Source of the DNA: a virus
Taxonomy: Duplodnaviria; Caudoviricetes
Reading direction: 5' to 3' (one strand)
Virus record (IMG/VR): IMGVR_UViG_3300050821_001527
Coordinates: 64,001 to 128,000 of that record
DNA: 64,000 nt
A program made the translations under genes and the position numbers. The notes below the pieces were generated by a model. The model searched no databases and was not told the origin of the DNA. It saw nothing but the letters and a program-made list of their open reading frames with translations. Every line of letters begins with the position of its first letter. The first letter of the stretch is position 1. Positions 44,618-64,000 of this stretch are shown here, in pieces.

Positions 44618-45001
44618 GGGGACGTAATGGTTTCGACATTTATTGTTGAAAGCCGAACGCAAGCACGGGATGATTGTTGGCCCGTTAAAAATTCAATCAA
44701 AACATAAATGCTAACAAAGTAGCACTTAGAAATGCAGTTGACTGCGGAGTAGTTCGCGGTTTTGCAGCATTTGCGATGGCTTAATGCCGTCCCGTCCACC
44801 ACTCCGATTCTCGCTACGAGTGAATGGGCGTAAAAACAGCGGGAAAAAACCCTAGAGCCGGTTCGAGGGTAACGGAACCGGATATTGATGGTGAGTTTTG
44901 CTGCCAGTGTAGCCAATCAAGAATATCAAAGGCTGATAAGCTTGTAGTGTTTTTCTTGCAAACGTAAGTGGACGCGGGTTCAACTCCCGCCGTCTCCACC
45001 A
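44618..45001 (+). ncRNA. ssrA: tmRNA, tag ORF 44710-44784 (A)ANKVALRNAVDCGVVRGFAAFAMA*
   Basis: 5' GGGGACG...GGTTTCGAC and 3' GCGGGTTCAACTCCCGCCGTCTCCACCA; G3.U70, A73; TA-N3-GCT resume context. Confidence 0.95.
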
Positions 45002-52432: not shown

Positions 52433-52461
52433 TTGACAAGGTTAGAAAAGTCGGATACAAT
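52433..52461 (+). promoter_or_regulatory. Sigma70 promoter P3 of the tRNA array
   Basis: TTGACA-N17-TACAAT. Confidence 0.8.
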
Positions 52462-52833: not shown

Positions 52834-52905
52834 ATCCAGTTGTTCAAGAGAACAATGCGAACTCCAAATCCGCAGAGCAGGGCGCGATACCTTGACTGGA
52901 TGCCA
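52834..52905 (+). tRNA. trnW-CCA: tRNA-Trp(CCA), miniature D arm
   Basis: Loop CTCCAAA, G73, T loop CGCGATA. Confidence 0.65.
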
Positions 52906-52906
52906 T

Positions 52907-53386
52907 TTAATGAGGGTTGTGTTTGACGACCCTTTCGCATAGAGCGATAAACTCGTCAACCGAAAGGTCTTGTTTAGCGTAGTTCACTTCGCTAGTAACC
53001 AAGCCACAGTTCGCCAGAGATGATTCGCCGCCTTTTGAAACTGCGACGATATGGTCTAGGGAATAGGTTTCCGGCTTGGAAATGTCAATTCTTTCACCAG
53101 TAAGATAGCAGCGTGGCTCACTTCCGATTTTATCCTTGAGTTGTTGAACGGTGAATTTGACGACTTTTGGGCGCACAGAACTTCTTCGATTGCCCCTGTA
53201 AAACGTCGCAATCTTAGAAACGAGAGGATTAGTTTCTCGGTAGTTTTTGGTGTTCTTTTGCATAGAAAGCTTTCTGTTCGGGCTGAAACGGTAGATAAGA
53301 GTCCATTTTGAGATTCCGGTTTCCTTGGCAACCGCGTCATAGCTCATTCCGTCAGTAAGCATTTTTTGAATTTTTTCATCGTTCAT
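52907..53386 (-). CDS. HTH-HNH endonuclease inserted antisense in the tRNA array
   Basis: CYLTG...SLDHIV..SKGG...LANCGL....N.AK; GTGTAAT-N7-ATG start. Confidence 0.88.
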   Translation of the reverse strand: MNDEKIQKMLTDGMSYDAVAKETGISKWTLIYRFSPNRKLSMQKNTKNYRETNPLVSKIATFYRGNRRSSVRPKVVKFTVQQLKDKIGSEPRCYLTGERIDISKPETYSLDHIVAVSKGGESSLANCGLVTSEVNYAKQDLSVDEFIALCERVVKHNPH

Positions 53387-53437
53387 ACAAGATATTACAC
53401 TTGCAAATTGCCAGTGGGAACTTGCAATGACGATTTT

Positions 53438-53509
53438 GGGCGTGTGTAGAAGGCTACTGGTTTGCTTTGCAAGCAAATTGTCGGGGAGCGTTACCCCGCA
53501 TGTCCACCA
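53438..53509 (+). tRNA. trnA-UGC: tRNA-Ala(UGC)
   Basis: G3.U70, loop TTTGCAA, T loop AGCGTTA. Confidence 0.85.
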
Positions 53510-53515
53510 ATTTTA

Positions 53516-53678
53516 CGGGTGTTGGCGAAAGTCAGTCAAGCTGACAGCGGAACCGTTAGAAAACCCGCCAAACGCAACCTCAAGTGTGGAGAATACTGGC
53601 TCATATAATTGCCTGAAAAGGCGATACAATGGGGGTTTTTAATGTCTCCTTGTGGGTATAACTCCCACACACCCGCCA
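53516..53678 (+). ncRNA. tRNA shell with about 90-nt structured insert in the anticodon arm (Lys-UUU-like if excised)
   Basis: GGGTGT/ACACCC-G-CCA, D arm, GACA/TGTC stem, T arm GTGGG-TATAACT-CCCAC. Confidence 0.55.
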
Positions 53679-53679
53679 A

Positions 53680-53875
53680 TTTCAGTAGCATTAGCGGTTA
53701 AGGCAATACGATTAGTTACGTGAGCCTCCGTCCACAAGGTAGTGGGTATAATCAAGAAACAAGTGACTCGGTGCCTAAAAGGAGTCATCCCAATGAGCGG
53801 GCGAAAGCTTGTCGCGTTCACCGATTACAAGGTGCATTGGTGCGATAAATGCAGGGTGCGAATCCCAAGCTGAAA
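53680..53875 (+). ncRNA. Multi-hairpin RNA with 3' T-arm mimic
   Basis: TTTCAGT/GCTGAAA closing stem, at least 5 internal hairpins, GGG-TGCGAAT-CCC. Confidence 0.5.
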
Positions 53876-53997
53876 GTATTTCTATCGGCATCAACACAAT
53901 GAACACACCGGCTTAAATGAGTTTCATAACTATGTTGAGTTAGCCGCGTGGTGCTGGTGAGTCGGCGGGTAATCAATCCCGTATGGAGAAAAGTTTC

Positions 53998-54071
53998 GGG
54001 GTTGTGGTTCAATAGCAGAACGGCGGATTCGCAATTCGCAGACGACGGCGCGATACCGTCCTACTCCACCA
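53998..54071 (+). tRNA. trnA-CGC: tRNA-Ala(CGC)
   Basis: G3.U70, loop TTCGCAA. Confidence 0.85.
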
Positions 54072-54081
54072 ATTTCAATTT

Positions 54082-54158
54082 CCGGCCTGCCGTTTGGGTG
54101 CGAGTCCCAAGTTTAAGCAAGTGAAAGCGGCTAACTAGCATAGGTCAATGGTCGGCCA
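54082..54158 (+). ncRNA. T-arm-first (permuted) tRNA-like RNA ending in CCA
   Basis: CCGGCC/GGTCGG-CCA; TTGGG-TGCGAGT-CCCAA near the 5' end. Confidence 0.45.
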
Positions 54159-54162
54159 ATTT

Positions 54163-54236
54163 GGGGTCATAGTTCAATAGTAGAACGCGAGGCTGGCAGT
54201 CTTGTAATCAGAGTGCGATTCTCTGTGGCTCCACCA
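54163..54236 (+). tRNA. trnA-GGC: tRNA-Ala(GGC)
   Basis: G3.U70, loop CTGGCAG. Confidence 0.85.
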
Positions 54237-54343
54237 ATTTCTGAAACGTTCGGGATGGTGTAACGCGCTTTGGCGGTTCATTCGCCATTGCGAACTTCCG
54301 TTGTATCGAGAGAAGCGAAACGGCGTTTCGGGCAAACTTTAAT

Positions 54344-54437
54344 GGCCGGTGTCCCCATCGGGAGTCTGTAAAACTTCTATGCTTACAAATGTGATGGGAA
54401 GTTGCACCGAAGGAGCGTTACCTTCACCGCGCCACCA
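54344..54437 (+). tRNA. Atypical tRNA-Tyr(GUA), D-armless
   Basis: Loop CTGTAAA, bulged acceptor, T loop AGCGTTA, ACCA. Confidence 0.55.
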
Positions 54438-54651
54438 ATTTCTTCTTGACCGAAAACCAGACCTGTAAACCGAATGTCCCGGTAGGTTGCACGTATTGGT
54501 GAGTAAGAGGACACAGGAAGGAAAATTTTCATCCACTGGCGCACTGGCGCTAGTGCGAGATTCGGGGTGGGTGGCAATGAAGACCGAAGCCCCGACAACG
54601 CGAAACCTGCAAAAAGTGGTTTAACTACCGAGAGAGAGGACTCGGCGTAAT

Positions 54652-54727
54652 GGTGGTATTGATGTAATAGTTAGCATCTTCCCCTGTGAAGGGAACTGTG
54701 CGGGTGCGAATCCCGTATATCACCCCA
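54652..54727 (+). tRNA. trnH-GUG: tRNA-His(GUG)
   Basis: Encoded G-1:C73, loop CTGTGAA. Confidence 0.9.
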
Positions 54728-54767
54728 ATTTCATTCACGTAGAACATGAAAGTGTGTAATAAAAGTT

Positions 54768-55214
54768 ATGAGCAGCGTTGACTCACTCGAAAACCACGAC
54801 CAGTTCCATTTGGAACAACTGCACAAGCTTTCCTGTCAAAGCGGCTCGAAGGACATTCTCGTTATTGACGATAGCACGGGCGACTTGATGGACATTCAGA
54901 AGATTATGAACCTCAAGTATGCAGACCAATTTCACGTAAGGTATTGTCTGGACGCTGAAAAGGGGATTGAGATTCTCAAGGAAAACAATTTCTTTTTGGT
55001 TTTGCTCGATTTCAAGATGCCGAAGTTGAACGGTCTTGAAGTAATCGAGACGGTAAACAAGATGAAGCAGAACGTTCCGTTCGTAGTTTTGACGGGATAC
55101 GGCGACCCATCCATGCGCGAAGCATTGACAAGATTGGGCGTAATGCTCCTGTTGGACAAGCCAATCACGGAGAAGAAGCTGGACATGCTCCTGACTTTGA
55201 CTCACGCGAAATAA
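54768..55214 (+). CDS. Stand-alone CheY-like receiver domain
   Basis: IDD, LLD.KMP..NG, LTG, DKP all intact. Confidence 0.92.
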   Translation: MSSVDSLENHDQFHLEQLHKLSCQSGSKDILVIDDSTGDLMDIQKIMNLKYADQFHVRYCLDAEKGIEILKENNFFLVLLDFKMPKLNGLEVIETVNKMKQNVPFVVLTGYGDPSMREALTRLGVMLLLDKPITEKKLDMLLTLTHAK

Positions 55215-55219
55215 TTTCT

Positions 55220-55296
55220 GGCCGCATAGCTCAAATAGATAGAGCAGCACCCCGCGAAGGTGAAGGTTGTAGGTGCGACTCCTACTGTGGCTACCA
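55220..55296 (+). tRNA. trnR-GCG: tRNA-Arg(GCG), C33
   Basis: Loop CCGCGAA; D loop AAATAGATA; T loop TGCGACT. Confidence 0.75.
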
Positions 55297-55493
55297 TTTT
55301 CCCGCATAGTCCGTTGAGCAGCCCCGTAGCAACGAGGAAACAAAAGCTTGATGGTTCAGCCAAGCCGTGCGCCAGCGCGGTATTTGCGTGGTGCGAGTCC
55401 ACGGGGAACGATTTATCCCCCTGCTGGTATAGTCCAGCGAAGTAGGTGAGGCTAACCTATGAGTGGTTCGTAACGCACAAGAGGGAATTTTAT

Positions 55494-55576
55494 GGGCATG
55501 TAACCGAAGCAGTCCTCGAAACTGATTAACCGTAATTATGTTGCAAATGTGGGTGAGATTCCCTCCATGCCTACCA
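55494..55576 (+). tRNA. tRNA-like gene, anticodon unresolved (possible pseudo-tRNA)
   Basis: GGGCATG/CATGCCT-A-CCA and T arm present; anticodon stem poorly paired. Confidence 0.45.
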
Positions 55577-55662
55577 ATTTCTCTGTTTGACAATCGAGCC
55601 TAAATAGTCTGCACAGACGGCGCGGGTTCGTAGATGTTGTGCGAAACGGAGGATTCATTTCT

Positions 55663-55755
55663 GTTCCCGTAGCTGAAAGACAGCCGGTGCCCTTATAAAG
55701 CACTTAATCGCTAGATTGGCGTAAGACTCAGGAGCGTTACCTGACGGGAATACCA
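55663..55755 (+). tRNA. tRNA with UAU anticodon and long variable arm
   Basis: Loop CTTATAA; TAATC-GCTA-GATTG variable hairpin. Confidence 0.7.
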
Positions 55756-55762
55756 AATTTTA

Positions 55763-55846
55763 CGCATCGTGACATAAGCGCGAATAGCACAGCCACACGT
55801 CTCAAAAATGTGAGTTTTAAGGGTGCGAGTCCCTTCGATGCGACCA
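55763..55846 (+). tRNA. trnL-CAA: tRNA-Leu(CAA), short V region, insertion before the D stem
   Basis: Loop CTCAAAA, A73. Confidence 0.75.
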
Positions 55847-55852
55847 ATTTAT

Positions 55853-55928
55853 GTGCCTATGATGGAATAGCATACATACCAGCCTCAGAAGTTGGGTTTT
55901 GCAGGTGCGAGTCCTGCTAGGCATACCA
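55853..55928 (+). tRNA. trnL-CAG: tRNA-Leu(CAG), class I-like short V loop
   Basis: Loop CTCAGAA. Confidence 0.8.
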
Positions 55929-55933
55929 TTTCC

Positions 55934-56017
55934 CGCTCCGTGACCTTGTAGCGAACAGCACAGCTTGCCGTCTTAGACACGGTGGTTTTGCAGGTGCGAG
56001 TCCTGTCGGAGCGACCA
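55934..56017 (+). tRNA. trnL-UAG: tRNA-Leu(UAG), short V region, insertion before the D stem
   Basis: Loop CTTAGAC. Confidence 0.75.
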
Positions 56018-56022
56018 ATTTA

Positions 56023-56110
56023 GCCAGTGTGGTGAAAGAGCAGACACACCATCTTGAGAAGGTGGCGCGAATAAAGTAGCGTGTAGGTGCGAATCCTATC
56101 ACTGGCACCA
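56023..56110 (+). tRNA. trnL-GAG: tRNA-Leu(GAG), long V arm
   Basis: Loop TTGAGAA. Confidence 0.85.
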
Positions 56111-56192
56111 ATTTCCTAATGGAAGGTCTGTTAGGACACAGTAGCAGTCGAGATTCTAACCGCCTCGCCGGGGCGTTGCTACACGGCATTAC

Positions 56193-56267
56193 GGTCTATT
56201 GTTGAATGAGTTATCATAGTTCCCTGTCACGGAGCAATAACGGGTGCGAGTCCCGTATAGACCGCCA
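56193..56267 (+). tRNA. trnD-GUC: tRNA-Asp(GUC)
   Basis: Loop CTGTCAC, G73. Confidence 0.85.
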
Positions 56268-56272
56268 TTTTA

Positions 56273-56340
56273 CGGCTGAGTTAGCGATTCCTGCGCGTGG
56301 GAACGAGACGATTCACTTCGTTTAACTGATGAAGCCGCCA
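56273..56340 (+). ncRNA. 68-nt CCA-ended RNA with a T-loop-like hairpin first
   Basis: CGGCT/AGCCG-CCA; AGTTAG/TTAACT; TTCC-TGCGCGT-GGGA. Confidence 0.4.
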
Positions 56341-56345
56341 ATTTT

Positions 56346-56422
56346 GGGATAGAAGGTAAAGTAGTGGAACCGTTCCGTTGTCTGCGGAAAAAAAGTGGGT
56401 GCGACTCCCATCTATCTCGCCA
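56346..56422 (+). tRNA. trnD-GUC: tRNA-Asp(GUC), second copy, U37
   Basis: Loop TTGTCTG, G73. Confidence 0.75.
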
Positions 56423-56517
56423 TTTTGTCAGAGAAGTCCGTCAACCATGCGGTTGACCCGTATGGAGAACGTCGAGTTCAGACATATTGTATAGCTGGCC
56501 ACTTAGGACTTCCGTTC

Positions 56518-56595
56518 AGTCAGTGAGGGAGTAAGATAACCCCGACGCCTGCAAAGCGTTTCGTATAGTCGGAGCATTACCGACACTGACTTCCA
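56518..56595 (+). tRNA. trnC-GCA: tRNA-Cys(GCA)
   Basis: Loop CTGCAAA, U73, T loop AGCATTA. Confidence 0.85.
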
Positions 56596-56599
56596 TTTC

Positions 56600-56676
56600 G
56601 TCCTAATGGTGTAAGGGAATTACAACACGGTAGTCTTCGGACTACAGATGCAAGCCAACTATTGCAAGGGACTCCA
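56600..56676 (+). ncRNA. tRNA-like RNA with a cUUCGg tetraloop replacing the anticodon loop
   Basis: GTAGTC-TTCG-GACTAC; D and T arms; CCA end. Confidence 0.5.
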
Positions 56677-56680
56677 ATTT

Positions 56681-56757
56681 CGGTTTGTCGCCTAGTGTTC
56701 ATGGCACTCGCCTTGGGAGCGAGCATAACGCGGGTTAAAATCCCGCCAAGCCGACCA
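56681..56757 (+). tRNA. trnP-UGG: tRNA-Pro(UGG)
   Basis: Loop CTTGGGA; T loop TTAAAAT with D-loop GT (U19-A56). Confidence 0.85.
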
Positions 56758-56766
56758 TTTTTTAGA

Positions 56767-56843
56767 CGGGGTATAATGTCAGCAGCTAGACGGCTCCCTT
56801 CGGAGGGGAGAGGCCGTGGGTGCGAATCCCACTACCCCGACCA
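56767..56843 (+). tRNA. trnP-CGG: tRNA-Pro(CGG)
   Basis: Loop TTCGGAG. Confidence 0.85.
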
Positions 56844-56847
56844 TTTA

Positions 56848-56918
56848 TGCAGGAAGAATGAGATTCAAGCGGGCCTCATAAGCCTACCCCCGTGGACGCG
56901 ACTTCCACTCCTGCTTCC
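56848..56918 (+). tRNA. tRNA-Met(CAU)-like, 1:72 mismatch, short D arm
   Basis: Loop CTCATAA; T loop CGCGACT. Confidence 0.55.
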
Positions 56919-56963
56919 ATTTTTTATCGAACAGAAACCGTTCTCCGATATAATAGATATTTA

Positions 56964-57041
56964 CGCGGGGTGGACAAGTAGTAAGTCGTTGGCCTCATAA
57001 GCCAAATATCGTCAGGTGCGATTCCTGACCTCACGCAACCA
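56964..57041 (+). tRNA. trnfM-CAU: Initiator tRNA-fMet(CAU), bulged acceptor
   Basis: CGCGGGG 5' end, C1:A72, loop CTCATAA. Confidence 0.8.
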
Positions 57042-57044
57042 TTT

Positions 57045-57461
57045 ATGGAAGACGCCGTTCTCAACACGCAAAAAGCCTTGGACACCGCATTGGCATCATT
57101 GAATGCGCTGGCTAAAAAAGATTACGTTCCTCCGACAACCCCCGACATTGACCCCGAAACTGAAATGCCGATTAAAGGGAATGGCACGGAAGAATATGAT
57201 ACCGAAGACGCTTACGAGGATGGGGAAGAAGCAGTCCGTCTGTGCATTGAAATTGCCCAGTTGAGGCTAGAGGTCGAGGGCCAGCCCCGCCGTGCTATCG
57301 TCAACACGGAAAAGGCGGCAGAAATCCGAGCAAGGGGAGCGATTGACAAGGTAAGACCAGAGCGTCACCTGAGCGTTTCTCCCGAACTTATCAAGAGTAT
57401 CGAACATTCCGTAGCTAAACCGGAAATGATGTTCTTCGTTTTGGAAGAACCCAAGGAATAA
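57045..57461 (+). CDS. Hypothetical acidic protein, 138 aa, within the tRNA array
   Basis: ORF exactly fills the gap between two tRNAs. Confidence 0.65.
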   Translation: MEDAVLNTQKALDTALASLNALAKKDYVPPTTPDIDPETEMPIKGNGTEEYDTEDAYEDGEEAVRLCIEIAQLRLEVEGQPRRAIVNTEKAAEIRARGAIDKVRPERHLSVSPELIKSIEHSVAKPEMMFFVLEEPKE

Positions 57462-57467
57462 GATTTC

Positions 57468-57542
57468 GCGTTGTTGGCAGAGAAGTGATGCGCTTGCCTT
57501 CCAAGCAAGTTTAAGTGGGAGCATTACCCACACAACGCTCCA
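57468..57542 (+). tRNA. trnG-UCC: tRNA-Gly(UCC)
   Basis: Loop CTTCCAA, U73. Confidence 0.85.
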
Positions 57543-57545
57543 ATT

Positions 57546-57970
57546 TGTCCGAAGCTATAATCCCCGTGCGTAATAGCACTAAGCGCAAGTAGGCCGAAAG
57601 GCAGAACCGTGATGGTGGATGAACTGCTCGTCTAAAATATCGGCTACATAATTTAGTCAGGTCGTCGGTCTGTCGTTGCGGTGAGCAATCACCAAGCCTA
57701 TGGGACGGCGGCTCGAAAAGGTATCCGTAAGCTGGCAGGAATCGCTTGTGCAAGATTCCACTACCGAAGGAGAATGCGGCGAAAGCCAAGTTCGTTCGCA
57801 CTTGTAGTAGGTCAGTCATCTCAGCCGAGGCAGGCATTTTCAAAATCGTTAGGGTTAGTCCAACCACGGTAAAACGTGAGAGGGGTCATAAAAGACTGCA
57901 AGCGTCACCCTGCCTAAAACCCCCTGTTGGTGAGTGGATAGTTGAAAACGAGGTCAGCGATGACCTGACT
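57546..57970 (+). ncRNA. Large ornate structured RNA (GOLLD/ROOL-like candidate)
   Basis: 13-bp long-range helix 57655-57667/57958-57970; several GNRA-capped hairpins. Confidence 0.6.
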
Positions 57971-57973
57971 TTT

Positions 57974-58049
57974 AGCCGCATGGTGAAATTACAATCACAC
58001 AATCCTGCGAAGATTGAAGTCCCGGTGAGATTCCGGGTGCTGGCTACCA
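57974..58049 (+). tRNA. trnR-GCG: tRNA-Arg(GCG), second copy, bulged acceptor
   Basis: Loop CTGCGAA. Confidence 0.75.
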
Positions 58050-58053
58050 TTTT

Positions 58054-58128
58054 GCGACATAGGTGTTTATAGATACACGCGAGTCTTCCAAACTTGAGTA
58101 GTGAGTGCGATACTCACACGTCGCTCCA
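58054..58128 (+). tRNA. trnG-UCC: tRNA-Gly(UCC), second copy
   Basis: Loop CTTCCAA, U73. Confidence 0.8.
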
Positions 58129-58133
58129 ATTTA

Positions 58134-58186
58134 TGCACCCAAAACTTGCAAGTTACTCGACCCATGAATCGAGTGTGGTGCAACCA
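58134..58186 (+). ncRNA. 53-nt two-hairpin RNA ending in ACCA (armless tRNA-like)
   Basis: TGCACC/GGTGCA-A-CCA; ACTCGA-CCCATGAA-TCGAGT. Confidence 0.4.
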
Positions 58187-58192
58187 ATTTAT

Positions 58193-58267
58193 TCCCTAGT
58201 AGTGTCAAAGTAGCACGTCTCCCTGTTAAGGAGTTTAGTGTTGGTGCGAGTCCAACCTTCGGAACCA
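58193..58267 (+). tRNA. trnN-GUU: tRNA-Asn(GUU), mismatched acceptor
   Basis: Loop CTGTTAA. Confidence 0.65.
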
Positions 58268-58279
58268 TTTAGTCAGCAT

Positions 58280-58364
58280 TCCAGAGTAGGAGAATTGGTA
58301 AACCCAGCGGACTGTTAATCCGCCGCGAAAGCAACTGCTCGTTCAAGTCGAGCCTCTGGAGCCA
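58280..58364 (+). tRNA. trnN-GUU: tRNA-Asn(GUU), canonical elbow, extra variable hairpin
   Basis: D loop GG, T loop TTCAAGT, GC-GAAA-GC variable arm, G73. Confidence 0.9.
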
Positions 58365-58474
58365 TTTTCAAGACATTTCCCCTGACGAAAGCTCTACGAT
58401 GTAGAACATCGCACCAGCAAGTCATGGTTACATGACGTGTCCGTGGACGCACGGAAGCGGGGAGTTTGAATTTT

Positions 58475-58552
58475 GCATCCGTCAACCAAACGCGTAAATG
58501 ACTCGGGCTTTTAACCCAAAGGATGTGGTCACGCAAGCCACCGGATGCACCA
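58475..58552 (+). tRNA. trnK-UUU: tRNA-Lys(UUU)
   Basis: Loop CTTTTAA; divergent T loop. Confidence 0.7.
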
Positions 58553-58670
58553 ATTTCTACCTGAACACAAGTGCTATGTCATCGAGCCAAGTCACGGTTA
58601 TTGTGTATCGTGAAAATTCCGTTGACAATGTAGCAATGCGCGAGAAAGACGCGCACGGGTTCCTTTTCAT

Positions 58671-58744
58671 AGGGATATAGTATAAAAGTAGAACGGCACC
58701 CTGACACGGTGAAGGCGAAGGAGCGTTACCTTCTATCCCTACCA
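58671..58744 (+). tRNA. trnV-GAC: tRNA-Val(GAC)
   Basis: Loop CTGACAC. Confidence 0.85.
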
Positions 58745-58750
58745 TTTTAT

Positions 58751-58830
58751 GAGAATCGAGACGCGGGTGCATATCCCGCCTGCCTGTTTAAATACTTGCA
58801 GTAGCTTAGTAGCAGAGCGCGATTCGTCTC
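58751..58830 (+). ncRNA. YrlA-type Y RNA (permuted tRNA mimic), A18.G55 version
   Basis: Outer GAATCG/CGATTC, T arm, loop-closed acceptor CTGC/GCAG, TA, D arm GCTT-AGTAGCA-GAGC. Confidence 0.75.
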
Positions 58831-58838
58831 CCTTTTAC

Positions 58839-58917
58839 GGAACGGTAACTCAAATGGGTCAAGAGTGTTCGCCCGATTAGCGAAAGGTTGTGGACTCCCA
58901 AGCCACTCGTTCTACCA
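58839..58917 (+). tRNA. trnI-GAU: tRNA-Ile(GAU)
   Basis: Loop CCGATTA. Confidence 0.75.
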
Positions 58918-58922
58918 ATCAC

Positions 58923-58995
58923 GGTTCCATACGATAAAGCAGTCCCCATGCCCGATTAGCGTGGTGTCTTGGTGCGAGTCCAAGTGGAACTACCA
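58923..58995 (+). tRNA. trnI-GAU: tRNA-Ile(GAU), second copy
   Basis: Loop CCGATTA. Confidence 0.7.
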
Positions 58996-59000
58996 TTTAC

Positions 59001-59076
59001 TGCCCTTTAGCTCATTCAGCAGAGCGGCGTCTTGATAAGGCGAAGGTGGTCGGGGCAGAGCCGACAAGGGCAACCA
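59001..59076 (+). tRNA. trnI-GAU: tRNA-Ile(GAU), third copy
   Basis: Loop TTGATAA. Confidence 0.85.
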
Positions 59077-59079
59077 ATT

Positions 59080-59244
59080 ATGAAACCATACGGATTGACA
59101 AAGAAAATCCTACACAACCATCCCGATGTTCACCCGCCGAAGGGCTGGGTCAACTGGTGGGAAAGCGAAACGAGGGACTGTCTCCGCAAGAAAGCAGAAC
59201 GCCAACAGGCGAAAAAACAGATTTTACAAGATTTGGCTTCGTAG
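59080..59244 (+). CDS. 54-aa basic peptide (HPPKGWVNWWE motif); stop lies inside the next tRNA
   Basis: ATG directly after a tRNA CCA-ATT spacer. Confidence 0.6.
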   Translation: MKPYGLTKKILHNHPDVHPPKGWVNWWESETRDCLRKKAERQQAKKQILQDLAS

Positions 59245-59311
59245 CTCAAGCGTCAAGAGCAGCCGCCTTTTAAGCGGAAGCGTCCGGGCAGTCAATCCGG
59301 TGGGGCCACCA
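59235..59311 (+). tRNA. trnK-UUU: tRNA-Lys(UUU), second copy
   Basis: Loop CTTTTAA; T loop CAGTCAA. Confidence 0.8.
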
Positions 59312-59457
59312 ATTTATAAACACCTAGACCGTGTGCGATACCGGCATGGTTTCGTGAGTCGGCTATGTCGAAGCCGAAGAAGATTCGCGGGACTTGGAGT
59401 GTGAAAGAAGCACGGGTGTATTTTTTTGAATAAAAAGCGGATTCGTTTATCATAGGT

Positions 59458-59835
59458 ATGCAAAACGTTTATCTGAACCGCGACGAACTCCTGCCGATTG
59501 TCAAGGAGAACAAGCAAAAGCACGACAACATTTTTTCCACAGCCGTTTCCGGCTATTGGGTCAAGGCCGAAGAAATCCTGAACGGCAAACTGAACAAGGT
59601 CAAAGCCAAGCAGCAAGTTGACAATTACCTTGGACTCAGCTATCCCGAAGACCATTCTGATGAATATGACCGAGTAATCAGGATGCTGGAACTTTCGTCT
59701 GATGACAAGATTCAGCTTACGTCTTCCGAGTTTGATTGCTATGTTCGCAATCAATGGAACTGGCGCAAGGCGTTCTTGACGGTCAATTCAACATACATTT
59801 CGGACTGGAACCCCATTTCCGGGGCTTCATTCTAA
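59458..59835 (+). CDS. Hypothetical helical protein, 125 aa
   Basis: TATCAT -10-like element 4 nt upstream; plausible fold. Confidence 0.7.
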   Translation: MQNVYLNRDELLPIVKENKQKHDNIFSTAVSGYWVKAEEILNGKLNKVKAKQQVDNYLGLSYPEDHSDEYDRVIRMLELSSDDKIQLTSSEFDCYVRNQWNWRKAFLTVNSTYISDWNPISGASF

Positions 59836-59915
59836 CAGTCTTGGTCGAGGCGTGGGTTCGATTCCGCCGTGTGGCTCCATGCCGCACGTAGCTTAGTGGC
59901 AGAGCGCGACCTGTT
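59834..59915 (+). ncRNA. YrlA-type Y RNA, canonical G18.U55 version
   Basis: GGTCG/CGACC outer stem, TTCGATT loop, 7-bp loop-closed acceptor GTGTGGC/GCCGCAC, D arm GCTT-AGTGGCA-GAGC. Confidence 0.8.
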
Positions 59916-59916
59916 C

Positions 59917-59991
59917 GGGGCTATGGTGCAGAAGTAAGCACGTTAGGTTCTCAACCTGAAAACGTCGGAGCGTTACCGACTAGCCCTACCA
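59917..59991 (+). tRNA. trnE-CUC: tRNA-Glu(CUC)
   Basis: Loop TTCTCAA. Confidence 0.85.
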
Positions 59992-59997
59992 ATTTAC

Positions 59998-60073
59998 GGG
60001 GGAGTGGTGCATAAGTAAGCACGGTTGGCTTTCACCCAGCAGAAGCTCGGAGCGTTACCGGCCTCCCCTACCA
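59998..60073 (+). tRNA. trnE-UUC: tRNA-Glu(UUC)
   Basis: Loop CTTTCAC. Confidence 0.85.
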
Positions 60074-60078
60074 TTTCT

Positions 60079-60156
60079 GTAGCTGACCAGTAAGTCGTCG
60101 TCTGCTCTGGCTTTCAACCAGATGTGTAGTGGGTGCGAGTCCCACCAGCTATGCCA
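60079..60156 (+). tRNA. trnE-UUC: tRNA-Glu(UUC), second copy
   Basis: Loop CTTTCAA, G73. Confidence 0.8.
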
Positions 60157-60219
60157 TTTCCGGGGTGCGCCTCGTCAATTCGTTGATAGGACGGCGAATA
60201 TATCACCCCACTTTTTCTC

Positions 60220-60297
60220 GGTTCCGTGGTGTAAATGGATTAAGCACAAGAGACTTTGACCCTCTTAGCTCCGGGTGCCAGCCGGACGGAACTGCCA
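60220..60297 (+). tRNA. trnQ-UUG: tRNA-Gln(UUG)
   Basis: Loop CTTTGAC, G73. Confidence 0.8.
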
Positions 60298-60304
60298 TTT
60301 TTAT

Positions 60305-60380
60305 TCCCTCTTGGATTGTAATAGTAGCAACTCGGGCTTTGAACCCGAAAGCGGTGGGGCAGAACCATCAGAGGGAGCCA
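60305..60380 (+). tRNA. trnQ-UUG: tRNA-Gln(UUG), second copy
   Basis: Loop CTTTGAA, U1-A72, G73. Confidence 0.88.
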
Positions 60381-60465
60381 TTTATCGGGGTAAGGGTGTA
60401 TTCGTGTAACGACCACTCGGAAGGAGTCTGGAAGCTTACGGACAAACTTCGTCCCCATCTATTTT

Positions 60466-60541
60466 CGGAGTGTATTGTCAACAGCAGACGGCCCGCCTTG
60501 GAAGTGGGAGGTAGTTGGGGCAGCACCAACCATTCCGACCA
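60466..60541 (+). tRNA. trnP-UGG: tRNA-Pro(UGG), second copy, A37
   Basis: Loop CTTGGAA. Confidence 0.85.
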
Positions 60542-60545
60542 ATTT

Positions 60546-60728
60546 ATGAACACTGAAAAAATCGTAGGTCAAGAATATCCAGCCGAATGTCTCGTTGATT
60601 CCAAGACGGGTCTGCCGGTGATGATTCGTCATACCGAAGATTCGGACAGGATTCGTCAGTTGGCGAAGGCCAGCGCGGAGAACCTTCTGAGGGCTTTGCG
60701 AGACGAAACGGGGCTGACGCCCATTTAA
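60546..60728 (+). CDS. Hypothetical protein, 60 aa, between tRNAs
   Basis: ORF fills the tRNA spacer exactly. Confidence 0.55.
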   Translation: MNTEKIVGQEYPAECLVDSKTGLPVMIRHTEDSDRIRQLAKASAENLLRALRDETGLTPI

Positions 60729-60733
60729 TTTAC

Positions 60734-60809
60734 GGGTCTATAACTCAAATAGATAGAGCCTCGCCTTCTAAGCGATGGGATTCAGGTGCGACTCCTGATA
60801 GACCTACCA
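60734..60809 (+). tRNA. trnR-UCU: tRNA-Arg(UCU)
   Basis: Loop CTTCTAA. Confidence 0.88.
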
Positions 60810-60866
60810 TTTCTAGTATAGCCACATGGCGTTTCACAAGTGCTTCAACTAGGTGTAATTCTAGGT

Positions 60867-61343
60867 ATGGGCCACAAAGCTACAAACGAACAACTGGCGG
60901 TTATTATCGCAGAGTCTATTTCCTTCTCTGAGGCAATGAGAAAATGCGATATGAAGCCAAGGGGAGCGTCTTACCAATGGTTTCAAAAACGAGTTAAGAA
61001 GCTCGGATTAGACACGTCTCATTTTAAGGGATACTCGGCTGGTGGTCTGGAAAGGGCCAAGCAGATAAAGAAGCATTGGTCGGAGATTCTTGTTTTAGGA
61101 GACGGTTCGGGCAGAGAAAGGTCAGAGCCTCTTAGGAGGGCTTTTAAAGAATACTGCTTAGAGCAGGCAGTCCCACATATTTGCAACGTCTGCAACGTCT
61201 GCAAGATGGAACCAATTTGGAATGGCCAGCCAATGATATTTCAAATTGACCACATCAATTCAATCAATTTCGATAACAGACCGCTGAACCTTCAATGGAT
61301 TTGCGGCAACTGTCATCAACAGAAAAATTCTAACGGCTACTAA
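60867..61343 (+). CDS. HNH endonuclease (second) in the tRNA array
   Basis: LDTSHF N-terminal module; C..C...FQIDHIN....DNR..NL.W.C.NCH. Confidence 0.9.
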   Translation: MGHKATNEQLAVIIAESISFSEAMRKCDMKPRGASYQWFQKRVKKLGLDTSHFKGYSAGGLERAKQIKKHWSEILVLGDGSGRERSEPLRRAFKEYCLEQAVPHICNVCNVCKMEPIWNGQPMIFQIDHINSINFDNRPLNLQWICGNCHQQKNSNGY

Positions 61344-61410
61344 GCTAATCAAGTGAAAGCAGCGGACTGAAAATCCGTGGAGTTTGGCGCGATACCAAAA
61401 GTAGCCACCA
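61335..61410 (+). tRNA. trnF-GAA: tRNA-Phe(GAA)
   Basis: Loop CTGAAAA; overlaps the HNH stop. Confidence 0.85.
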
Positions 61411-61415
61411 ATTTT

Positions 61416-61563
61416 GGGTATATGTTGTAATGGCAGCAAAAAGGGCGGGAGAGTCGAGGGAATAGCAGACCAACTATAGCTCTGTAAGCCTAGTAGCTCG
61501 ATTTGAAAACCTGAATACTCGTCTATACGAGTGGCCTCGGTTCGATTCCGGGTATATCCACCA
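61416..61563 (+). ncRNA. 148-nt tRNA shell (G3.U70, canonical elbow) with about 60-nt insert
   Basis: GGGTATA/TATATCC-A-CCA; D loop GG; T loop TTCGATT; variable hairpin; GTCGAG/CTCGAT-closed insert. Confidence 0.65.
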
Positions 61564-61567
61564 ATCT

Positions 61568-61646
61568 CCGTCAGTAGCTCAAATGTGGTAAGAGCGTTGG
61601 TTTGAAACACCAAAGGTTGTCGTTCCCCAAACGACTTGACGGGCCA
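61568..61646 (+). tRNA. trnF-GAA: tRNA-Phe(GAA), second copy, G73
   Basis: Loop TTGAAAC; T loop TCCCCAA. Confidence 0.7.
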
Positions 61647-61666
61647 TTTTAAGTGTATAATTCTGT

Positions 61667-61921
61667 GTGGAAGCACTAGCAAAACAGACCCTTCAATGTG
61701 ATGACTGCAAGAAAGTCATTGACACCCGCCGCGATACTGACCTTGAGGACAGCATCCAAGCGAAGTTGAAGAACCTCAAGGGCGACCCGCAGGTTTATCA
61801 TTTCTGCGCGGAAAGCTGCCTTGCCTCCTTTTTGCAGAAGCGCATCAAGAAAAAGAACGCCCGCGCCTCATACGACGCTTTCGCCTACGAGATTGATTTG
61901 TCCGGGGCAAAGGTTAAATAA
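61667..61921 (+). CDS. Small metal-binding (TRASH-like) protein
   Basis: CDDC...HFC..SC; TATAAT 5 nt upstream of GTG. Confidence 0.6.
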   Translation: MEALAKQTLQCDDCKKVIDTRRDTDLEDSIQAKLKNLKGDPQVYHFCAESCLASFLQKRIKKKNARASYDAFAYEIDLSGAKVK

Positions 61922-62130
61922 TGAAATTTTCATCTTTCGCCAAGCTTGTGTTGATTTTCGGGGCAGCGATTATGCTCCTTGATGGTTGCGCTCTCGTTGG
62001 TTGTAATCACGCATTCCCGCAAGTCGAATGGTATTGGTCAGCCGATGCTAAAGCCTGTCGCAAGGAACACGCGATGGAAGCCCAGTGGCGACAGTCCGCA
62101 ACAAACAATTTAAGGCAGTCGTTCAAGTGA
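61921..62130 (+). CDS. Small predicted lipoprotein
   Basis: Hydrophobic signal plus LDG-C. Confidence 0.5.
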   Translation: MKFSSFAKLVLIFGAAIMLLDGCALVGCNHAFPQVEWYWSADAKACRKEHAMEAQWRQSATNNLRQSFK

Positions 62131-62184
62131 ACAAGATGCTCTCATAAGGCGTCAAGGATGGAGCGTTACCATCGTCTGCTACCA
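62114..62184 (+). tRNA. trnM-CAU: tRNA-Met(CAU), miniature D arm
   Basis: Loop CTCATAA; GTTC-AAGT-GAAC. Confidence 0.65.
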
Positions 62185-62189
62185 ATTTC

Positions 62190-62266
62190 GGATTCGTAGC
62201 TCAAATGCTAAGAGCAGCCGGTTCTTACCCGGAAGGTTGTGGCTCGTCAAGCCACCGAGTCCACCA
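62190..62266 (+). tRNA. trnK-CUU: tRNA-Lys(CUU)
   Basis: Loop TTCTTAC; D-loop GC with T loop TCGTCAA (C19-G56). Confidence 0.85.
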
Positions 62267-62270
62267 TTTA

Positions 62271-62340
62271 TGGCCGTCAGCCTGAACCCCATCAGGCTAG
62301 TCCACCAAGGACGATGCAGAGGGTTATGCAACGGCATCCA
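62271..62340 (+). ncRNA. Three-hairpin cloverleaf ending in TCCA, no canonical loops
   Basis: GCCGT/ACGGC; AGCCTGA/TCAGGCT; GTCC/GGAC; TGCA/TGCA. Confidence 0.4.
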
Positions 62341-62344
62341 TTTC

Positions 62345-62416
62345 GCCAGTGCCGTCAGCACGGATTCGAGTTTTGTAAACTTGAAGCAGTCGGGGCAGCA
62401 CCGACCTCTGGCTCCA
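62345..62416 (+). tRNA. trnT-UGU: tRNA-Thr(UGU)
   Basis: Loop TTTGTAA. Confidence 0.8.
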
Positions 62417-62420
62417 TTTC

Positions 62421-62556
62421 GCCGTTCTAGTTCAATGTAGAACACGTCTCTCGAAAAGCCGATAGGCTCCCTGAACGGAGCAGTTAGTGGGGTGTTTGCC
62501 CTGCGATGTAATAAGGCCAGATGAACTGCTGGTGCCAAGTCCAGCGAACGGCTCCA
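62421..62556 (+). tRNA. tRNA-Ser(CGA)-like with about 65-nt variable region
   Basis: GCCGTTC/GAACGGC-T-CCA; loop CTCGAAA; multi-hairpin variable region. Confidence 0.6.
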
Positions 62557-62626
62557 AACTAGGCTGCGCGTGGTAGCCTCAGAGGGGTGAAAGTCCCTAA
62601 CCACGACAAATTTAATTCAATTTAAT

Positions 62627-62701
62627 CGCCCGTTCTGAATAATAGTAGTTCGTCGCGCTCTGAACGCGAAGGCGGTGGGGCAGAACCATCACGGGTGGCC
62701 A
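62627..62701 (+). tRNA. trnQ-CUG: tRNA-Gln(CUG)
   Basis: Loop CTCTGAA, G73. Confidence 0.85.
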
Positions 62702-62706
62702 TTTAC

Positions 62707-62780
62707 GCGGGATTAGCTCAAAAGTAGAGCGAGTCGTTTACACCGACAGGACGAGGGAGCATTACCTTCATTCCGCACCA
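62707..62780 (+). tRNA. trnV-UAC: tRNA-Val(UAC)
   Basis: Loop TTTACAC. Confidence 0.88.
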
Positions 62781-62785
62781 TTTAC

Positions 62786-62862
62786 GCAATCGAAGCTACA
62801 GCAGACCGGCTCCCGGCTCTTAACCGGATTTGGTGAGGTTGCAACTACCTCCGATTGCACCA
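62786..62862 (+). tRNA. trnK-CUU: tRNA-Lys(CUU), second copy
   Basis: Loop CTCTTAA. Confidence 0.8.
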
Positions 62863-62866
62863 TTTC

Positions 62867-62946
62867 GCGGTCTTAGCTTAAACGGATAAAAGCCCTTCGC
62901 TCTTAACGAATGAGATGTCGCCCTCCAAGCAGGACAGACCGCACCA
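62867..62946 (+). tRNA. trnK-CUU: tRNA-Lys(CUU), third copy, irregular T arm
   Basis: Loop CTCTTAA. Confidence 0.7.
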
Positions 62947-62957
62947 ATTTGATTACA

Positions 62958-62998
62958 CCCCTGCCGCCTCTTGACAATGCGTAATCGCAGGGGTTTTT
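62958..62998 (+). terminator. Probable terminator near the end of the array
   Basis: CCCCTGC/GCAGGGG plus T5. Confidence 0.55.
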
Positions 62999-63006
62999 CC
63001 ATTTAT

Positions 63007-63092
63007 GGCCGTGTGTAGCGTAAGGGAAAAGCAGAACCGATAGACTTAAAATCTGTTGCTACTTGAGGGTGCAAGACCGTCCACGGCTACCA
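63007..63092 (+). tRNA. trnL-UAA: tRNA-Leu(UAA), insertion before the D stem pairing with the V region
   Basis: Loop CTTAAAA; GTAGCG/TGCTAC extra helix. Confidence 0.75.
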
Positions 63093-63111
63093 ATTTAGTG
63101 TAATGTTTGTC

Positions 63112-63189
63112 ATGGACAACTCAAAGCCTTGGTGGAAAGAAGAATGGTTTGAAACTTGGCTGAAAATTGCCCGCCGTCAGTTCTCGTAA
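63112..63189 (+). CDS. 25-aa Trp-rich peptide MDNSKPWWKEEWFETWLKIARRQFS
   Basis: GTGTAAT-N7-ATG start context. Confidence 0.4.
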   Translation: MDNSKPWWKEEWFETWLKIARRQFS

Positions 63190-63207
63190 ATGCGTGTAAT
63201 AAGAAGT

Positions 63208-63966
63208 ATGGGAAAGTTACTAAGACTCGGAAGAAAGCAAGCCCGCTTCGACAAGCGCACTTTGAAGCTGGAAGACTACATTTCTGCTGATTTACAGTTC
63301 CCCCGCAAGGTTGTTTGGCAGAACAAGATTCCAAATTGGGGCATGATGCTTAACGACCAGTTGGGAGATTGCACCTGTGCCGCTGCCGGTCACATGATTA
63401 TGAACTGGACGGCCAATGCGGGCGTCCTCGTCACCCCAAACGACAACCAAATTCTTTCCGCTTACGAAGCCGTTGGGGGATACAACCCAAATGCCGCTCC
63501 CGACGCCAATGGAAACAACCCAACCGATAACGGTGCCGTTGAACTTGACGTTTTGAAGTATTGGCAGGGAACCGGAATCGCCGGTCACAAAATCGGGGCT
63601 TACGTCAGCATTGACCCGAAGAACAGACGCCACTTGAAGTTGGCTATCTGGCTGTTTGGGGGAATTTACACAGGTGTCAACCTCACGCAAGCGGACATGG
63701 ACGCCACCAACGCAAACCAGCCTTGGAAATACACCACCGGTTCCTCGATTGGCGGTCACGCCATTCCTGCCTTGGGATTCAACCAGCACGGCTTTCAATT
63801 CATTACATGGGGAGCCGTTCAAACGGCCACTCCTGAATGGGTCGCCAACCAAACCGAAGAAGTTTACGCCTTGATTTCCGCAGATTGGCTTGAAAACAAT
63901 GGCAATGCTCCCTCTGGTTTTGATGCTCAACAACTTGCCGCCGACTTAAAAAGCGTCCAAAACTAA
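63208..63966 (+). CDS. Papain-like (C1-type) cysteine peptidase
   Basis: NDQLGDCTCA (catalytic Cys), GGHAI (His), ITWG; GTGTAAT-N7-ATG. Confidence 0.8.
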   Translation: MGKLLRLGRKQARFDKRTLKLEDYISADLQFPRKVVWQNKIPNWGMMLNDQLGDCTCAAAGHMIMNWTANAGVLVTPNDNQILSAYEAVGGYNPNAAPDANGNNPTDNGAVELDVLKYWQGTGIAGHKIGAYVSIDPKNRRHLKLAIWLFGGIYTGVNLTQADMDATNANQPWKYTTGSSIGGHAIPALGFNQHGFQFITWGAVQTATPEWVANQTEEVYALISADWLENNGNAPSGFDAQQLAADLKSVQN

Positions 63967-64000
63967 TTCAAAATATTTGCTTGGGCCAAGCCATCCGGGT

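Follow-up and report, generated by a model that had tools for sequence, protein, structure and literature searches.

A raiA-type RNA encoded in the tRNA arrays of phages and Planctomycetota

A 316-nt RNA gene in the tRNA array of a phage is identified by sequence comparison as belonging to a divergent and enlarged subtype of raiA/ModT RNA, of the same stock as the bacterial family. It lies on the + strand at 57655-57970 of the analysed window, a 64,000-nt stretch of DNA (bases 64001-128000) from an IMG/VR virus record that measures 203 kb, is 91 per cent complete and has 49 per cent GC. Eight further distinct members, 57-64 per cent identical to the window copy, bring the total to nine. All nine sit inside tRNA arrays, at differing array positions and across three unrelated genome types. 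Bacterial raiA RNA is abundant. The raiA motif RNA, or ModT, has been described in earlier work (PMC5737381, PMC10861870, PMC11706538), and its structures, including that of a subtype with P2 and P8 (PDB 9E74), have been published (PMC12968392). The published record limits raiA to the chromosomes of Bacillota and Actinomycetota and speaks against horizontal spread of the gene.

The phage tRNA array

No close relative of the phage is in culture; the best match of its helicase among cultured relatives reaches 27 per cent. About forty-five co-oriented tRNA genes, together with a few HNH genes and small ORFs, run from window position 52834 to past the window end. At the head of the array is a sigma70-like promoter (52433-52461, + strand) recognized by consensus match alone (TTGACA-17-TACAAT, eleven of twelve consensus positions). 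This promoter is the likely source of the RNA's precursor, and no convincing terminator was found on the + strand between the two. The upstream neighbour of the RNA, identified by a tRNA scan, is tRNA-Gly(TCC) (57468-57542, +). Downstream, a weak tRNA-Arg(GCG) gene (57975-58045, +; Rfam tRNA score 36.6 bits) starts 4 nt 3' of the RNA. Default ARAGORN missed this tRNA-Arg gene, as well as a tRNA-Gly(TCC) gene at 58054-58128 and a tRNA-Cys-like gene at 56519-56592, of which L005 carries an evident homologue. T-loop position 55 is G (TGC for TTC) in eleven of the sixteen tRNAs parsed from the window array (52834-64000), and the same base is found in 10/14 parsed tRNAs of the L152 array and 8/20 of the L145 array; tRNAs of this kind also occur in the L005 and L121 arrays.

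Genes for HNH-type endonucleases lie in or beside the arrays (window 52907-53476 on the - strand and 60840-61343 on the + strand; L153:2088-2717; 139696-140331 of the phage genome, G000), and one HNH family is common to the phage, the Planctomycetota arrays and the array of a GC-rich phage. A phage tmRNA is present at window 44618-45001 (140 bits). Outside the window, a 389-aa ORF (G000 155297-156466) is one that we take, judging by eye, to be RtcB RNA ligase-like. Neither hpf nor KhpA/B-type KH genes were found in the 203-kb phage genome, and searches of viral contigs did not find relatives of the neighbouring 138-aa ORF.

The array also holds three tRNA-sized elements that are not tRNAs and have closing helices or hairpins (57546-57650, 58376-58470 and 58556-58665). 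None has a homologue in related arrays, and the first two have no Rfam match; the second and third have a CAAGTCA-GGTTA motif in common. The 109 nt from 57546 to 57654 (+) had been counted as part of the RNA in the first-pass annotation, which was made from the sequence alone. They fold no better than shuffles (z -0.07), match nothing in Rfam and gave no homologue in related arrays with nhmmer, and we class them as a spacer or an unclassified small element separate from the raiA-type RNA. Candidate readings of this upstream stretch of about 105 nt as a Y RNA, ribozyme or riboswitch were rejected (no Rfam match), and the idea that short motifs pointed to a group I intron or to RNase P was given up for want of a model match.

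Extent and family of the RNA

The first-pass annotation had proposed a large, ornate non-coding RNA of about 420 nt, flanked by Gly and Arg tRNA genes in a phage tRNA cluster. Homology and covariation bear out the RNA and its setting. Its size is revised to 316 nt, because a 13-bp closing helix (57655-57667/57958-57970) marks the ends at 57655 and 57970. That helix had been singled out in the annotation, rightly: there are eleven such 13-bp helices in the 203-kb genome, and about 0.02 are expected per 425 nt. The other named helices are likewise all present where they had been placed, though one of them, the GCC-GAAA-GGC hairpin, falls within 57546-57654 and so outside the closing helix. The overlapping ORFs are shadows, as had been suspected, because the lengths of the relatives differ modulo 3 and the aligned frames hold stops.

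Covariation, on which the annotation had made its RNA depend, is present. Given a simple MAFFT alignment, RNAalifold independently finds P1a-c, P3a-b and P5-P8, with double-sided change in thirty-four of fifty-eight pairs, and a further covarying pseudoknot, PK3, is described below. Folding energy is unremarkable against shuffles (z -0.59 for the 425 nt and z -2.07 for the 316 nt). The modest advantage of the 316-nt fold is expected, as the RNA is pseudoknotted, and the RNA's reality rests on homology and covariation, not on folding energy.

At its gathering score Rfam missed the RNA; a scan by E-value revealed raiA (RF03072) at 57659-57966, with 54.9 bits, E 2.9e-12 and coverage of the full model (positions 1-209). 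This score is below the RF03072 gathering score of 101.3 bits. Relatives of the same subtype score 35-59 bits with RF03072, and canonical controls 136-199 bits. The Rfam scans gave no covariance-model match to GOLLD (RF02032), ROOL (RF03087), OLE, RNase P or SRP RNA. The first four were those that the annotation had proposed to scan for, and none appeared up to E 10. Its expectation of a GOLLD/ROOL relative thus fails, and so does its alternative of a wholly new class, since raiA was matched full-length instead.

The core grammar of raiA has a single occurrence in the 203-kb genome and none in thirty shuffles. Mapped onto the cryo-EM numbering (PMC12968392), every core element is in register, in the order P1a, GU bulge, P1b, P1c, U19-G20, P2, P3a, AU/GAAA bend, P3b, A70, 6-nt loop, P4, GUAAG, P5, PK2, G117, PK1, linker, P6, P7, P8, GAGU, the 8-nt PK2 linker and the GGU bulge. 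The assignment of the gene to a tRNA-array subtype draws on the RF03072 match, the eight homologues and our own sequence-only models, R1 and R2. We set the subtype apart from ordinary RF03072 members because of its score, the lack of a 6-bp PK1, the lack of the canonical loop E and its context, the tRNA array of a phage without hpf in place of a comFC/hpf neighbourhood in Bacillota or Actinomycetota.

The conserved core

The 5' strand of P1 (57655-57678, +) comprises the 13-bp P1a, a GU bulge at 57668-69, P1b (CUG), P1c (UCGU) and U19-G20, and is supported by covariation. P1c occurs as UCGU/ACGA, UCAU/AUGA, UAAC/GUUA and UCGC/GCGA, with UGGU/ACCA in the canonical RNA. By simple extension P1a has 6-15 bp, and by the same rule 6-14 bp in canonical controls, which makes this a weak comparison. 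The GU bulge is kept in eight of nine members (it is lost in L153), the GGU bulge and P1b in all nine, and the G10-G14-C242 triple bases are in place along with P1a, P1b, P1c and their bulges. P2 (57680-57693, +), here a hairpin with a GCAA tetraloop, is optional: it is missing in three of nine members and reaches 48 nt in others.

P3a and P3b, with their A-rich bend, occupy 57696-57722 (+) in the canonical 27-nt register (PMC12968392), and their loop CGGCGG (57706-57711) is the PK1 donor. The 5' strand of P4 (AUCC) and the conserved GUAAG follow at 57723-57731 (+), AUCC pairing with GGAU at 57936-39 where canonical RNAs have CCAC/GUGG. From the bend through A70 and the 6-nt loop to P4, spacing is identical and all pairs are kept by compensatory changes. 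Pairing rules alone place the PK2 strand UCA (57821-23), the invariant G117 (57824) and the short PK1 strand CCG (57825-27) together at 57821-57827 (+), and this is the single solution in the window sequence. The PK2 strand covaries as UCA/UUG/UCG, matching the 3' linker in all nine members next to G117, and the PK1 strand as CCG/UCG/CCA.

Covariation also supports P6 (57860-64/57926-30), P7 (57865-78), P8 (57882-85/57920-23) and a distal hairpin, which together span 57860-57930 (+). The 3' part (57932-57970, +) was placed by homology and contains GAGU, the P4 3' strand, the PK2 linker AGUUGAAA (57940-47), the P1c 3' strand, the GGU bulge (57952-54) and then P1b CAG and the P1a 3' strand.

The core helices pair in all nine members and in the canonical control, with differing sequences; there are five versions of P1c, three of P3a, three of P4, four of PK2 and several of PK1. 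Twelve bases are invariant in 9/9 members: G14, G20, A65, A70, A81, A82, G228, A232, A233, G239, G240 and C242. From these comparisons, the raiA core of P1, P3, P4, PK2 and part of PK1 has almost certainly been kept.

Features specific to the subtype

The comparison set consisted of fourteen canonical Bacillota RNAs and the published structures. PK1 has 3-4 bp in all nine members, against 5-6 bp in the thirteen canonical RNAs that could be parsed, and the distance from PK1 to P6 is 28-48 nt, against 15 in canonical RNAs. The CGGCT/AGCCG helix of the first-pass annotation is, in its CGG/CCG part, this PK1; the CU/AG extension, which relatives have not preserved, would compete with P3b and PK2 for pairing. 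After the insertion, a second half of PK1 amounts to 2-3 bp in three members and 1 bp in most, with none in L129. A fully re-formed second half was rejected on re-parsing, which gave 2-3 bp in those three members only; UCG at 57846-48 is a weak candidate for pairing with the rest of the P3 loop.

Directly after the short PK1 comes the 5' strand of a new pseudoknot, PK3 (AGGCAGG, 57828-57834, +), whose 3' strand (CCUGCCU, 57909-57915, +) lies inside P8 before the RAA. AGGCAGG/CCTGCCT had been annotated as a helix; the pairing stands, as a pseudoknot and not as a nested helix. PK3 joins the PK linker, through the 6-7 nt that follow PK1, to P8 by 5-7 bp, and 40/42 pairs are kept across seven distinct types. 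Four columns show exchanges between G-C, C-G, U-A and A-U. Both mismatches are a U-U in the first position, in members where the same U can extend PK1 instead. In a permutation test that ignores relatedness and allows a one-base offset for all, this result is reached by 6 of 5040 permutations. Both strands were assigned by covariation.

P8 carries an invariant CAURAA with RAA in all nine members, replacing the canonical AGUA/GAA loop E, of which it may be a degenerate form. In the canonical RNA, the docking of P8 onto the 6-bp PK1 relies on a ribose zipper formed by loop E (PMC12968392). The canonical G227-A114 pair is A-U in all nine subtype members. An A/U-rich insert followed by an exposed linker, UUAGGGUUAG at 57849-58, fills 57835-57859 (+) and resembles the canonical UUAGAAGUAA linker. 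Before P6 the linker reads UUAGGGUUA here; it is similar in five of nine members and degenerate in four (canonical UUAGA(C/A)GUAA).

P5 (57732-57820, +; homology and covariation) has grown from 26-27 nt in canonical RNAs to 85-131 nt in the subtype, here a branched domain of about 90 nt made of the P5 stem, hairpin P5a (57738-57759) and arm P5b (57761-57807). The hairpin covaries. P5b ends in a variable tip and contains a 2x7 internal loop (GA/GUUCGCA), which is present in eight of nine members (missing in L152) and T-loop-like (U-N-R-N-A) in seven, the loop U being C in L153. Taken together, these features suggest that P8 is very probably clamped to the core by the base-paired PK3, and that P5 carries a new branched domain.

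Homologues and distribution

The further members were found by patterns built from the conserved ends. One (L005) comes from viral contigs and four (L120, L121, L122 and L129) from metagenome contigs, and these five belong to related jumbo phages. L005 and L120-L122 have genes in common with the phage studied here; the phage origin of L129 is inferred from the same Asn-Asn-Met tRNA neighbourhood on its short contig. L145 and L152 come from two Planctomycetota genomes (carriers G030 and G194), L145 in a chromosomal array amid metabolic genes. L153 belongs to an unrelated GC-rich phage with what we take, reading by eye, to be a T4-type capsid gene. Directly 3' of the L153 RNA is a mini-tRNA of about 40 nt, with acceptor stem, D-arm-like loop and CCA and without anticodon and T arms. 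A chromosomal array of twenty-four tRNA genes was also seen in Planctomycetota genome G030 (L150:109-5659), with two ordinary protein genes inside it and metabolic, not phage, genes alongside.

The nine sequences represent about seven lineages, and three have an identical PK3 sequence. A model built from five phage copies gives 89-107 bits to the three distant members that had been withheld from it, against 13 bits for canonical raiA, and a wider sequence model scores canonical raiA RNAs at 10-22 bits. By these scores the nine members form their own group within the raiA fold.

The subtype is present in 2/29 related viral records, nearly all of them incomplete. Since most sampled relatives have no match, the RNA is not essential to this phage group. 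A blastn search of three members against 50,697 GenBank phages gave no match. A model search was positive in two of about 190 Planctomycetota genomes, and no member beyond G030 and G194 was found in 150 Planctomycetota genomes, 400 searched by short pattern or 150 Acidobacteriota genomes. The two carrier Planctomycetota genomes, which may be incomplete, showed no canonical raiA and no KhpA/B-type KH domain.

The matches to one DNA pattern were all canonical raiA genes, lying at the ends of prophages or contigs. In two viral contigs of Clostridium-like composition, canonical raiA lies at the extreme end (L003:12-217 and L002:1-45); these are either host flank or the result of prophage integration next to a raiA gene.

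Proposed role and alternative explanations

We propose that a raiA-fold RNA gene of a distinct subtype is carried along by long tRNA arrays that spread horizontally among large phages and into some Planctomycetota chromosomes. Long tRNA arrays are known to spread horizontally and to be induced by translational stress (PMC8421152). The RNA would be carried on the array's polycistronic precursor, and RNase P and the trimming nucleases that mature the neighbouring tRNAs would probably release it. Processing of the 5' end of the downstream tRNA-Arg would free the RNA's 3' end, and the closing helix would protect both ends. The RNA lies 4-10 nt upstream of a tRNA in six members, and in the others a tRNA is present within 45-81 nt. 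Once free, it could well act in trans as a stable scaffold for upkeep of the translation apparatus (the tRNA pool or idle ribosomes) under stress such as infection, alongside the array tRNAs, tmRNA and repair genes.

The trans role is suggested by the array context, the stress induction of arrays and two lines of published work on raiA: it acts in trans and adjoins hpf and prfB (PMC10861870), and a modT knockout raises 75 of 90 tRNA loci as well as 5S RNA (PMC11706538). As every relative found lies in a tRNA gene cluster, there is a hint that this RNA family may work with tRNAs or ribosomes; among canonical loci, 0/14 have a tRNA within 1.5 kb. The array may instead be a convenient carrier that supplies a promoter and a processing route, a caution already voiced for GOLLD and ROOL (Weinberg 2017). 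We put the whole chain, from subtype through PK3 and P5 to release by tRNA processing and upkeep in trans, at roughly 50 per cent.

An unlikely alternative is that the RNA acts as a decoy, mimicking a host raiA-like RNA and using its exposed linker to titrate an RNA-binding protein of the host (an anti-phage nuclease or a KhpA/KhpB-like protein), with no direct action on tRNA. The linker between PK1 and P6 is a proposed protein-binding site (PMC12968392) and survives as UUAGGGU in five of nine members, and any protein partner would be a host protein because the phage genome encodes neither a KH protein nor hpf. However, L129, L145, L152 and L153 have a degenerate linker or none, the carrier Planctomycetota genomes, as far as they are complete, offer neither a KhpA/B-type protein nor a canonical raiA to mimic, and a decoy would have no need of a conserved new P5 and PK3.

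We think it less probable still that the gene is a captured raiA whose function is unrelated to translation (e.g. c-di-GMP or stationary phase), or one with a cis role in folding the precursor. ModT phenotypes do include c-di-GMP and sporulation (PMC11706538), arrays gather unrelated cargo such as HNH genes, and the presence of the RNA is patchy. Such a passenger is harder to reconcile with nine of nine members residing in arrays of three unrelated genome types at different array positions. Neutral decay is excluded by the strong structural conservation at 57-64 per cent identity.

A catalytic or substrate-binding RNA, with the core as its active site and the P5b loop gripping the tRNA elbow to mature or turn over unusual array tRNAs, also seems improbable. 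The compact core does hold invariant tertiary bases, the T-loop-like U-N-R-N-A recurs in seven of nine members, and many array tRNAs have G55 instead of U55; a ribozyme role for ModT has been raised speculatively (PMC11706538). Yet no raiA RNA is known to have such activity, the loop changes in L153 and is missing in L152, and one candidate T-loop is present here. Known elbow readers (RNase P, T-box and the L1 stalk) have two interleaved T-loops. The wider idea that raiA RNAs act directly on tRNA, by elbow binding via the P5b loop or by processing or protecting it, and that the phage copies control the tRNA pool in infection, strikes us as speculative and improbable.

There is next to no chance that the RNA is akin to GOLLD or ROOL, that it founds an unrelated class or that the region codes for protein: a phage tRNA island is a GOLLD/ROOL-type context (PMC12286853) and the raiA score is under the family cut-off, but the RNA is far shorter than GOLLD or ROOL and matches neither up to E 10, its raiA landmarks are in exact register with a core grammar that shuffling never reproduced, and its reading frames are broken in relatives.

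Comparison with known systems

The subtype extends the raiA family to viruses and a third phylum. It separates what must be kept (the fold and a dozen tertiary bases) from what can change, where canonical raiA gives little covariation because its core is nearly invariant. It also offers a natural structural swap, a base-paired PK3 for loop-E docking, and an independent genomic pointer to tRNA or translation that agrees with the rise in tRNA seen when modT is knocked out. In the openly readable papers searched, raiA was not described from phages, from tRNA arrays or from Planctomycetota, nor was a raiA-type RNA mentioned as cargo of long tRNA arrays (L-arrays).

With raiA/ModT the subtype has in common the order and register of its elements and the invariant tertiary bases. 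It differs in length (286-376 nt versus about 180-280 nt), in its rewritten core sequence (P1c, P3a, the P3 loop and P4) and in location, since it occupies phage and Planctomycetota tRNA arrays whereas canonical raiA lies by comFC/hpf in Bacillota and Actinomycetota. GOLLD and ROOL, too, are large and structured; they are encoded in tRNA islands of phages or prophages and are probably transcribed together with the tRNAs (PMC12286853, PMC5737381). They are longer, however (GOLLD about 800 nt or more with a conserved 3' domain, ROOL about 580 nt, versus 316 nt here), have no sequence or model match to the RNA, and assemble into nanocages, in contrast to the monomeric canonical raiA. The array itself resembles the L-arrays with HNH endonuclease described previously (PMC8421152, PMC5966550), with the same twenty to fifty co-oriented tRNAs, patchy spread and HNH genes nearby.
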